From IMG/VR virus record IMGVR_UViG_3300032304_001060, positions 1 through 64,000 of that record: 64,000 nt of DNA, one strand, 5' to 3'. The translations under genes and the position numbers were made by a program. This stretch comes from a virus. This document shows positions 6,485 to 39,547 of the stretch, in pieces (within the stretch, counting starts at the first letter, position 1; each line of letters starts with the position of its first letter). The notes under the pieces were generated by a model. The model saw only the letters and a program-made list of their open reading frames with translations, was not told the origin of the DNA and searched no databases.

Positions 6485-8230
6485 TTATTCCTTGCCGACA
6501 TTTCTCCTTAGTGGAATTTTCGTTCCATAGGCGTCAGTGACAAGTTTATTTCGGATCTCGGCCTCGGCCTGCTTCTCGATTCCTTCAGTCTGTTGGCTGG
6601 CATCGTTCATTGGGTTCTCAGGAGATGGCTCACCCATCATTCCGTCGCCCATAATGTCCCCATCACCCAACTGCGTTGGCTGCATAGGGATGGCTGAATT
6701 GCCGTCAGGACCTGGCATCATGCCAGTCATATCCATGATCTGCTTCTGGATCTGGACCTTGATAAGTTGTAGGGCGCCATCAGCCTCAGCGTCAGCGATA
6801 AGTTCCGCACGAATCTCTTCGAGTTTCTCTTCTGGGAATTCCTCACCAAGAGTACGGAGAGCGCCTTCCTTAGACTCAAGGCCCATACCGAGTTTGGTCT
6901 GGATCTCATTGAGCGCGATCAACTTATCTAGTGGGAGTGGCTGTGGGAAGTGAGCGTAGTTTATGTAAGAAATAGGATCATTTGGATCTAGAACAGGTAG
7001 TTGACCTTCTTTAATTGGGCCATCTACTTCTGGGTTGTAGATCATCGTCTCTGGTTCCTTGAGGAAGAGAGTACGAAGAGCGAGTTCATTGATGTACTCA
7101 ATGCCCTTGCCGTATTGAGCAACCTTCTGTGAGTAGCGGTTCATCAGTGGCTGATACTGAATAGAGAGAGCAACACCTGATGTATTAGAGATTGCTTGAA
7201 CCTGACCCAGTGCGGTTTCTGGGATGTTCATTACTTCATGCATTGAGCGCTTTAATAGTTCTAGGTACTTCAAGGCTCCGTCAATGCCTTGTGCACCGCC
7301 TTCTAGGTTGAAGACTTGAGCATCTTTTGGAAGACCGCCCCAAACCTTCTTAGCGCCTTTTTCTAGGTTAGAGGCTTTAGCACCCACGATTACCGTTACA
7401 GGTGATGCGTGGTAGTTAATGATGTCTGCGACATCAGTGCTAATTTCGTTATATGCACGGTTGATAGTGATGATGTCGTGTGCGTCCGAGAGACCCCACG
7501 GAGAACCAGATACTGGCACATTTGGAATGTGCACCACAGGAATTAATCCAAGTGGATTTGGGCGAGAATCAATCAACTCATCGTTAACGTATTCTTCAAT
7601 TACGTCATCAGTAAGAATTTCAGTGTATGTAAATACTTGACGTGTACCTTCAAGAGATGTTCCCCAGAAACGATACTTCTGCTTGAAACGCAATAGGCGT
7701 GAGCGATCGTGTGGGTGGAACTCAGGGAAACAGAATGACGAGTTCATTGGAAGAAGGCGAACACGACCAGGATGGAAGTGTCCAGCGGTATCTGTCCATG
7801 GCTCTTCATAAGCAATCTTTACAAAGCAGTCGCCTGTAATTCCGCCCTGTTGACCAATCTCAAGTAGAACACGCATCTTGTCGTTGTCTACTTCCCAGAT
7901 ACGCTCTAGACGATCTGGAACGATTGCTTCTGTAGCCTTTGGTGAACGGAAGTGAATGCCGCTACCAAATGTAAAGCGTGAAAGATAATCATTGAATGCA
8001 CGGTAGTAGTTAACAGCGATTTGCATTTCGCCTTGTTCTCTACGGTAACCCCAGTGATGACCTATTCAACCCAGGTACATCGCCCAGTTGAGCGAGTACC
8101 TGTTTAGACGTGGACCGTGAACTTCGAACTCCTCGTCGGCTAATTCAACCAGGCCAAGTGGAGAAATTGAAATTGTTAAATCACTTGATGCTGCTCTATA
8201 AGATGGGGGAGAGAAATCTAGGAAAGACAT
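6485..8230 (-). CDS. Portal protein, interrupted by an in-frame TGA at codon 55 (8068-8066)
   Basis: The C-terminal 513 aa carry portal motifs (NPLGLIPVVHIPN, SNTSGVAL). The same frame extends to ATG 8230 with a strong GGAGGTG RBS: MSFLDFSPPSYRAASSDLTISISPLGLVELADEEFEVHGPRLNRYSLNWAMYLG*IGHHWGYRREQGEMQIAVNYY. Confidence 0.85.
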
Positions 8231-8868
8231 ACGTCATGCACCTCCAATCCGTCTGTGACAGGCAAGGTATGCGCCTGGGTAGCACGTAATGCTCGTACTA
8301 CAACAGCAATTTCATTTTTCTTTTCATCAGTAAATGGATGGATTGATCCTTTGCGTCCATTGCAATCTTTGCACGCTGGACGTAAATTAGAAAGAACATG
8401 TGACCCACCTTTTGAAAGAGGGTGAACATGGTCCCACTGAACTACATCTAACTGTATTTCACAAATCCAACACTGGTTGTTGTACTGGTTGAGGATCTCG
8501 TCCAACACTGTTGCAGTTATTTTTTCAACATCAGAAGTCCAAAGAGCAGCACGTTTTTGACTGCGTCTAGCCTTGTTTAGTTTAACTCTATAAGCAGAAG
8601 TTTTAGATAACCCGTGAGTAGTCATTTGTGCTTTTACTACTTCGGTGTGGATACAACCACACGACGAAGTGTTACCATTTTTTACAGTGTATGATCGAAG
8701 CATTACAGAGGTACCGCAAGAGCATTCAAACCTTTGAAAACAACGATTCCGTCCATCTGGACGAACACGAAGTTCATAGTCTGTCGTTGCTGTTAGGCGG
8801 CCAAAAACAAGACCTGCTTCAATAAGCACAGGTTGTTTTCTCACAGCCACAATACTAGCAGAGGTCAT
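8218..8868 (-). CDS. Free-standing HNH homing endonuclease
   Basis: N-terminal FGRLT...CSCG...SCGC DNA-binding module and C-terminal CWIC...DHVHPLSKGGSH..SNLRPACKDCN HNH motif. Overlaps the portal start by 13 nt. Confidence 0.88.
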   Translation of the reverse strand: MTSASIVAVRKQPVLIEAGLVFGRLTATTDYELRVRPDGRNRCFQRFECSCGTSVMLRSYTVKNGNTSSCGCIHTEVVKAQMTTHGLSKTSAYRVKLNKARRSQKRAALWTSDVEKITATVLDEILNQYNNQCWICEIQLDVVQWDHVHPLSKGGSHVLSNLRPACKDCNGRKGSIHPFTDEKKNEIAVVVRALRATQAHTLPVTDGLEVHDVCLS

Positions 8869-39011: not shown

Positions 39012-39547
39012 TGATGAAACATCTACATAGAAGCCGAGTACTGATCGGTGGGGCTATCTCAGTCCTAGTGACAGGTCTAGGGGTCGTGGCAGGACAGCCA
39101 CAAGCCATAGCACCAGTCAAAGCCGAAGCAGTAGTCATATCAAAAAGCACAGTCCGAATGAACACGCTGGCCAAGTACAGCAACGCAGATAGCCTGACCG
39201 ATCGTGATCTGGTCAAGTTACTAGGTGCTGTCGGGTTCGAAGGCAAAGCCTTACGACAAGCGTGGGCAATCGCTAAGAAAGAATCAACAGGACGACCTCT
39301 CGCCCATAACGGAAACCGAAATACTGGAGATAACTCTTACGGGTTATTCCAGATCAATATGCTCGGTTCTCTGGGCGAAGAGCGACGGGATAAATTCAGT
39401 TTAGGTTCAAACGCTGAATTGCTCAACCCTGTGGTGAATGCCAAAGTCGCTTATCACATGAGCGATGCTGGGCAGGACTGGAGTGCATGGAAGGGAACTA
39501 ATACGAAGCGAGTCAAGTACTGGCTAAGTAAATTCCCTAAGGCATAA
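39008..39547 (+). CDS. Secreted lysozyme-like/transglycosylase protein
   Basis: N-terminal TM/signal, then AWAIAKKES...DNSYGLFQIN...NPVVNAKVA...WSAW. Confidence 0.8.
   Translation: MMMKHLHRSRVLIGGAISVLVTGLGVVAGQPQAIAPVKAEAVVISKSTVRMNTLAKYSNADSLTDRDLVKLLGAVGFEGKALRQAWAIAKKESTGRPLAHNGNRNTGDNSYGLFQINMLGSLGEERRDKFSLGSNAELLNPVVNAKVAYHMSDAGQDWSAWKGTNTKRVKYWLSKFPKA

Follow-up and report, generated by a model that had tools for sequence, protein, structure and literature searches.

How does a phage obtain its portal protein from a gene that is interrupted by an in-frame stop codon just after codon 54? This question is raised by a 64,000-nucleotide (nt) stretch of viral DNA, positions 1 to 64,000 of the IMG/VR record IMGVR_UViG_3300032304_001060 (hereafter the window), which makes up the initial 64 kb of a complete phage contig of 94,728 bp bearing direct terminal repeats and having a GC content of 46%. 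On the minus strand, the portal frame starts with the ATG at 8230-8228, reads TAC CTG GGT TGA ATA(8065-8063) GGT CAT CAC TGG across the interruption and then stays open in the same frame up to the stop at 6485. The gene comprises 581 codons when the TGA is counted and 578 without the nine bases TGA ATA GGT, 524 codons being located after this insert. The codon preceding the stop (GGT, 8071-8069) and the last codon of the insert (GGT, 8062-8060) are the same. An earlier reading made from the sequence alone (the sequence-only reading) had pointed out this arrangement, and its coordinates of the portal start, of the GGT-TGA-ATA-GGT run and of the in-frame continuation were all correct on the minus strand. 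The parts of the interrupted gene are as follows.

8239-8245, minus strand: Shine-Dalgarno sequence GGAGGTG of the portal gene, seen in the sequence, with the ATG 8 nt downstream
8069-8230, minus strand: portal segment 1, codons 1-54, the last being the take-off codon GGT (8071-8069); its amino acids are identical to those of relatives
8066-8068, minus strand: in-frame TGA stop immediately 3′ of the take-off codon, seen in the sequence
8060-8068, minus strand: nine extra bases, TGA ATA GGT, in comparison with uninterrupted homologous alleles; the proposed landing codon is GGT at 8062-8060
6485-8059, minus strand: portal segment 2, which begins with the resume codon CAT (8059-8057), runs to the stop and includes GHHWGYRREQGE; delimited from the sequence and homologues

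The answer that we consider likely is a short stop-triggered translational hop carried by a homing HNH endonuclease cassette. The mobile cassette would consist of a free-standing HNH homing endonuclease gene and the adjoining 5′ end of the portal gene, the latter carrying the 9-nt non-coding insert. A ribosome translating the portal mRNA would reach Gly54 (GGU) with UGA in its A site, and a share of ribosomes would keep the peptidyl-tRNA(Gly) instead of terminating; the tRNA would then unpair, shift 9 nt forward and re-pair with the next GGU. Decoding would restart at CAU, giving a 578-aa portal protein with the conserved MYLGHHWG, and the junction sequence predicted by this model is NWAMYLGHHWGYR. 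Situated in the most conserved DNA stretch of the gene, the insert probably destroys the site that the cassette's own HNH endonuclease recognises, so that carriers would be immune while naive alleles would be cut and converted. A hop combined with an HNH cassette had already been put forward by the sequence-only reading, and the idea is now supported by the comparison with homologues, by the co-occurrence of the insert with the HNH gene, and by sister inserts built on the same plan.

Distribution of the Nine-Base Insert

About 100 related contigs formed the evidence base of this work. IMG/VR contained 547 relatives of the portal, of which the best 80 (86–97% amino-acid identity) were fetched; interrupted versions were sought by a pattern scan of viral contigs and, in addition, by a metagenome pattern scan. 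Nearly all of the best 80 of 547 read ATG TAY YTN GGN CAY CAY TGG without interruption, and the distinct sequences examined included 59 insert-free close relatives. The nearest cultured relatives of the portal belong to the BRock group of Streptomyces phages (58–62% identity), Bacillus phage BCD7 being more distant. The sequence-only reading had left it to an alignment of homologues whether YLGHHW is conserved. The portals of BRock, GiJojo and BCD7 read YL-GHHW without three extra codons, just as the 59 relatives show no extra residues at the junction; within the motif, G, H and W do not vary even in BCD7, and no homologue has additional residues at this place.

The identical nine bases were found in L091, L095 and L099, which are viral contigs from other samples, and in L129, a 99-kb contig revealed by the metagenome scan. 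The portal genes of these four carriers have only 75.5% DNA identity to the window portal. Apart from this carrier, the metagenome scan brought one new allele (L135), the remaining hits being mostly known contigs and chance matches.

The presence of the same insert in four other assemblies, in a 75.5%-identical background, excludes an assembly error or a fresh lethal mutation. The simplest alternative, namely that the portal is a dead gene (be it a defective variant, a recent mutation or an artefact of assembly, for which no decoding solution would exist), can appeal to the fact that the contig is a metagenome assembly. Yet it is confronted not only with the four other carriers but also with the lack of any amino-acid change in any portal segment at a synonymous divergence (pS) of ~0.6-0.7, with the completeness of the genome, ends included, and with the essential, single-copy nature of the portal gene. 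This alternative is already largely refuted, and we give it almost no credence. Judging from its distribution, the nine-base insert is real and heritable.

A Family of Inserts and Its Design Rule

After removal of duplicates, the interrupted alleles yielded 18 distinct insert cores with lengths of 4, 6, 7, 8, 9 and 10 nt, all located near the start of the portal gene, at either of two sites: site B (codons 52-54), which is the place of the window insert, and site A (codons 34-36), 51 nt upstream. A stop codon stands right after a sense (take-off) codon in all 18 cores; TAA, TAG and TGA all occur, and closely related cores differ in the identity of the stop. In 13 of the 18 cores, the last triplet is cognate to the take-off codon (GGT/GGT, TAT/TAC, TAT/TAT, TTC/TTT, TTC/TTC, GAA/GAA and GAA/GAG), and in each of these 13 no cognate triplet, whatever its frame, comes between the take-off codon and the landing triplet. 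Some of these pairs differ in sequence while specifying the same amino acid, which points to matching by the tRNA and not to a DNA duplication. When each insert is cut out according to this design, exactly the conserved protein is given back. As far as the sequences tell, the insert family obeys one design rule.

The family includes a more diverged portal lineage (L103-L114, with MSSIDF... and GHHYSY...) bearing site-A inserts only, together with HNH genes of one particular clade (clade II, see below). This lineage holds a 6-nt core composed of two TAA stops and the 4-nt core GAA TGA A, where the landing GAA overlaps the stop. At site A, TAG CCC GAA follows Glu36 in L087 and TAG CCCC GAA follows Glu34 in L091; the occurrence of nearly the same insert after different Glu codons suggests either independent capture or movement of an insert between neighbouring GAA codons.

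The length series bears directly on the question of whether the stop is simply read through. If a near-cognate tRNA (e.g., that for Trp) decoded the TGA, a portal of 581 aa with three extra residues (G-X-I-G) would result, and the 9-nt window insert is indeed in frame, as are the 6- and 9-nt alleles elsewhere. The 4-, 7- and 8-nt sister alleles at the same spot, as well as the 10-nt alleles, are beyond rescue by readthrough, and the extra residues it would introduce have no counterpart in any homologue. Besides, if extra residues were tolerated, in-frame inserts would need no stop, yet the stop is there in 18 of 18 cores. A UGA followed by A is not known as a leaky stop context, which also counts against readthrough, and a search of Rfam gave no match to a selenocysteine insertion sequence (SECIS) or any other Rfam element. 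Finally, the 43 long open reading frames (ORFs) of the window end with TAA (25), TGA (10) or TAG (8); with 10 of 43 ending in this way, TGA is a normal terminator in the window genome. Readthrough of the UGA is in our opinion an unlikely solution. An alternative genetic code with TGA reassigned was also considered and rejected, both on account of the 10 of 43 long ORFs that stop at TGA and because the inserts of relatives use all three stops.

The same length series might be taken for a sign of some other recoding, i.e., +1 or −1 frameshifting giving a different product in the family, or for excision of the insert from the mRNA, inasmuch as the 4-nt alleles, such as TAT TAA C, and the 7-nt alleles, such as TAT TAG G TAC, formally amount to +1 shifts with one or two extra residues. 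At these sites, however, re-pairing in the P site after a 1-nt slip would be poor (e.g., UAU to AUU), and a frameshift would add residues at a position free of indels and is inapplicable to the in-frame window allele. As for excision, we know of no precedent for splicing of 4-10 nt in bacteria, which counts against it. Solutions of this kind appear very unlikely.

Evidence That the Segments Probably Form One Protein

The Pfam SPP1_portal match begins at residue ~41-44, upstream of the break, so the domain spans it. Sequence and profile searches of the PDB with the portal N-terminal region found nothing. Downstream of the insert, 13 codons (GHHWGYRREQGE) precede Met 8026; they include residues invariant out to BCD7 and remain unchanged in amino acids despite synonymous changes.

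Conservation of the whole coding region was examined in eleven interrupted alleles that had been ascertained independently of the middle stretch, between the two sites. The loci found by the site-A pattern were left out of the selection test of the middle segment, since the pattern itself required the middle peptide. Segments 1 and 2 show zero amino-acid differences across the eleven alleles at the pS given above, which is the same regime as in the 59 intact alleles. The figures for the ratio of non-synonymous to synonymous change (dN/dS) score swaps between Ser TCN and AGY and between Arg CGN and AGR as non-synonymous. By this comparison, all portal segments are under purifying selection.

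Four allele classes (L035, L075, L087 and L091) have inserts at both sites. In such double-insert alleles, a middle piece of 16-17 codons lies in another frame, and its sole start codon is a Met two codons before the next stop. This middle piece of 16 residues, too, is unaltered in amino acids across interrupted alleles despite heavy synonymous change. The class of L091, which also includes L095, L099 and L129, combines the 9-nt insert of the window with a 10-nt out-of-frame insert, GAA TAG CCCC GAA, which is placed two codons before the position usual for site A.

L091, 2486-2700, minus orientation: double-insert portal region, found by the pattern scan

Since L091 has the window insert together with an out-of-frame one, the same ribosomes must change frame in the L091 portal.

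These data are also relevant to a split portal, in which an N-terminal peptide of 54 aa and a C-terminal protein made by a new start at Met 8026 would assemble unjoined, as is the case with T4 gp39/gp60 and Aeh1 NrdA. An ATG with a weak AAGG is available 40 nt downstream of the break, and homing endonucleases are known to leave working genes in pieces (bioRxiv 10.1101/2022.08.31.505936). A restart at this Met would leave the 13 codons of GHHWGYRREQGE untranslated, and their intactness, along with the Pfam domain running across the break, does not fit such a restart. Nor does the conserved middle piece of the double-insert alleles have a usable start codon, and a split leaves the cognate landing rule unexplained. 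We hold a split portal to be quite improbable. For the insert family, the out-of-frame inserts of relatives exclude both a simple readthrough and a split protein.

The HNH Gene and Its Linkage to the Insert

The sequence-only reading had noticed a free-standing HNH gene overlapping the portal start; this gene is confirmed at 8868-8218, with an overlap of 13 nt.

8218-8868, minus strand: free-standing HNH endonuclease gene, 216 aa, between an 83-aa gene and the portal gene (PF01844, PHROGs)
8015-8868, minus strand: divergent, co-conversion-like tract including the HNH gene and the first ~216 nt of the portal gene (comparison with L005)

The product matches PF01844 with E=9e-10 (1.6e-11 in the genome search) and the HNH/endonuclease VII entries of PHROGs, and its CxxC...DH...N...CxxC motif is intact. 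In cultured phages, it has only distant relatives (<35% identity).

The linkage between this gene and the inserts was evaluated with an unbiased sample, that is, the top-80 portal matches after deduplication, provided that enough upstream DNA was available. Inserts were present in 5 of 5 HNH-bearing loci and in 0 of 51 HNH-less loci (Fisher p=2.6e-7), which answers in the affirmative the question of co-occurrence across genomes that the sequence-only reading had posed. The loci found with the HNH as a query likewise have inserts (5 of 5). The HNH gene is intact in 16 of the 21 distinct interrupted alleles; in 3 a remnant was detected (26-113 aa), and in 2 none was detected. One of the latter, L103, shares a short stretch beside the portal start with its HNH-bearing sister L108. 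In L091, L095, L099 and L129, the upstream HNH is reduced to a 32-aa C-terminal remnant, indicating that the nuclease was lost in this group while both inserts were kept.

The tree of 14 HNH proteins contains two fully supported clades. Clade I, which includes the window HNH, never occurs without an insert at site B, and clade II accompanies inserts at site A only; on this distribution, clade-I loci that also hold a site-A insert look like earlier clade-II invasions.

A comparison with L005, the nearest HNH-less relative, revealed the mosaic nature of the locus. Nucleotides 1-216 of the portal gene are 21% diverged, all differences being synonymous, vs. 4% in the next 213 nt (Fisher p=1e-7); the gene upstream is 90% identical. 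The first 90 nt of the window portal resemble those of other HNH carriers (92-97% to L085). This pattern of divergence, together with the likeness to HNH carriers, indicates that the HNH gene arrived along with the start of the portal gene as far as ~45 nt beyond the insert, and the whole looks like a co-conversion tract. A recombination boundary thus lies within the portal gene, being marked by the sharp switch in divergence at ~8015 on the minus strand, ~45 nt past the insert. Judging from these comparisons, the insert is linked to the HNH gene and the locus is a mosaic. The window HNH displays what is expected of a free-standing homing endonuclease: the intact motif, the sporadic presence (5 vs. 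51 loci) along with decayed copies, and the co-conversion tract.

From the distribution of inserts and HNH genes, and from the one-to-one correspondence of the two HNH clades to the two insert sites, we infer that the insert makes its carrier immune to the nuclease. Both sites fall into stretches of low- or non-degenerate codons, ADEEFEVHGP and NWAMYLGHHWG, and such DNA would be a typical target of a homing endonuclease.

In a broader form, and with somewhat less assurance than is warranted for the window itself, we favour the view that homing HNH endonucleases of freshwater phages repeatedly create and spread minimal stop-hop elements of 4-10 nt in the essential portal gene, that these are skipped efficiently enough for virions to be made, that each of the two nuclease lineages owns one site, and that successive invasions stack inserts.

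RNA Structure near the Stop and Points against a Hop

The sequence-only reading had proposed a hairpin that places the take-off codon and the UGA in its loop. The base pairs in question do exist and give -7.8 kcal/mol in isolation. However, this hairpin is not the favoured fold, being outcompeted by another one with which it shares its 5′ arm and which is the predicted structure (z=-2.4 for a 76-nt window).

8072-8102, minus strand: predicted hairpin of 13 bp with one bulge, -19.2 kcal/mol, its 3′ arm ending at the base before the take-off codon (folding)

At the DNA level, this element is a near-perfect 31-nt inverted repeat, CAGGTAC...GTACCTG, made up of rare synonymous codons and ending at the take-off codon. 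It depends on the synonymous codons AGG, TCG CTC and CTG, found only in alleles with the window insert. Between the window and L091, one base of the loop differs and the stem is the same. Just upstream of the insert, the site-B-interrupted alleles have hairpins of -7.7 to -19.7 kcal/mol, in three designs, vs. -5.4 +/- 1.8 kcal/mol in 68 alleles without a site-B insert. A general rule of a 5′ hairpin was considered and dropped: it holds for site-B alleles and fails for site A. For gene 60, it has been suggested that the 5′ stem-loop propels movement in the forward direction when it refolds (bioRxiv 10.1101/2024.12.09.627546), and by analogy a similar role of the 8102-8072 hairpin is possible.

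Several observations weigh against a hop in the window. No take-off hairpin resembling that of gene 60 is predicted by folding at the window stop, and at site A no enrichment of upstream hairpins was found, the 5′ hairpin being strong only in the allele class of the window. As the window insert is in frame, its own sequence is also compatible with the 581-aa product of UGA readthrough. Five of the 18 cores have only a near-cognate landing triplet, with the same position 2 and the same or a wobble-equivalent (T/C) position 3 (TTC->CTC, GAG->TAG, TAT->AAC), and not all 18 cores are independent, several being variants of GAA TAG ... GAA. Lastly, the laboratory stop-hops of Weiss et al. (1987) were reportedly inefficient, at about 1%.

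Comparison with Known Systems

For decades, efficient translational bypassing was known from one case, T4 gene 60. Its cassette with MobA was still called unique in a 2022 survey (Manning & Atkins, bioRxiv 10.1101/2022.08.31.505936), where a cycle of invasion, decay and loss is described for MobA; that source also cites the work on MobA by Bonocora et al. 2011, which is referred to here as far as it is cited there. The intact, remnant and absent states of the HNH gene in the window family represent the same cycle. The two systems are alike in having matched Gly codons for take-off and landing with a stop right after take-off, in interrupting an essential gene where it is highly conserved and has a free-standing HNH gene beside it, and in that every endonuclease carrier has the insert, which is retained in some cases after the endonuclease is lost and is thought to block self-cleavage. 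They differ in that gene 60 has a 50-nt gap and belongs to a topoisomerase gene that is also split by the endonuclease, whereas the window has a 9-nt shift (a 6-nt gap) in an unsplit portal gene. In contrast to gene 60, to which it bears no sequence relation, the window lacks a predicted take-off stem-loop and an evident internal Shine-Dalgarno sequence and has no known nascent-peptide signal, its upstream peptide being conserved for the function of the portal in any case, and its family comprises many alternative insert designs at two sites. With another gene, a 9-nt shift, no take-off stem-loop and no homology, the window element is an analogue rather than a member of the T4 gene 60 cassette family.

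Closer in size are the UUA-led gaps of 7-10 nt in the large terminase genes of Streptomyces phage phiHau3 and two prophages, for which mass spectrometry confirmed the bypass of a UAA version in E. coli (PMC10732093). In the literature searched, these three terminase genes were the only other short natural gaps found in phages, and no account of stop-led short hops in portal genes turned up in full-text searches. In both the phiHau3 type and the window, a very short gap between matched codons interrupts an essential gene for head assembly or packaging in an actinophage-like virus, and the junction is intolerant of extra residues. The phiHau3 trigger, however, is UUA, a rare sense codon in its high-GC host, with a proposed regulatory function, whereas in the window family of a 46% GC phage it is always a stop codon. 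Neither HNH genes nor homing are mentioned in the phiHau3 paper (PMC10732093), in contrast to the tight HNH link in the window family.

The mitochondrial byps of Magnusiomyces capitatus (Lang et al. 2014, as far as cited in PMC10732093) are mobile non-coding inserts skipped between matched codons. Like the window family, they are numerous and interrupt essential genes, but they are longer (27-55 nt), mitochondrial, derived from GC clusters and free of endonuclease linkage. In laboratory stop-hops, just as proposed for the window, a peptidyl-tRNA crosses a stop to a nearby cognate codon with a shift of a few nucleotides; those events are low-level and occur in synthetic constructs, whereas in the window nature has fixed the design in an essential gene, where selection maintains it.

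What sets the portal locus apart is a stop-led 9-nt gap in an essential structural gene, following a simple rule over 18 natural designs. The gap is linked to two lineages of homing endonucleases and bears traces of invasion, co-conversion, decay and re-invasion. If the proposed hop is true, bypassing would be a common and evolvable immunity device of selfish DNA, not a single curiosity, and the family would offer a series of naturally occurring alleles, differing in the length of the gap, the identity of the stop, the kind of landing (cognate vs. near-cognate) and the 5′ hairpin, for dissecting the re-pairing of peptidyl-tRNA. If confirmed, it would also mean that selfish nucleases can immunise their carrier without altering an intolerant protein. 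The consequence for annotation would be a warning: portal genes that look broken beside HNH genes in metagenomic phages may be intact.

Genome Setting

A search of the whole 94.7-kb genome found no HNH gene other than that at 8868-8218, and no tRNA genes were found within the 64-kb window. The locus gave no megablast match to cultured phages. A heuristic scan of the window for junctions of a stop with a cognate codon returned 25 matches elsewhere, and the three examined (near 39545, 55395 and 16322) are ordinary gene boundaries; we claim no second hop in the window. On the minus strand, the order of genes is the large terminase (11243-9657), a gene of 131 aa, the gene of 83 aa, the HNH gene, the portal gene, a gene for a scaffold-like protein, and the major capsid protein gene.

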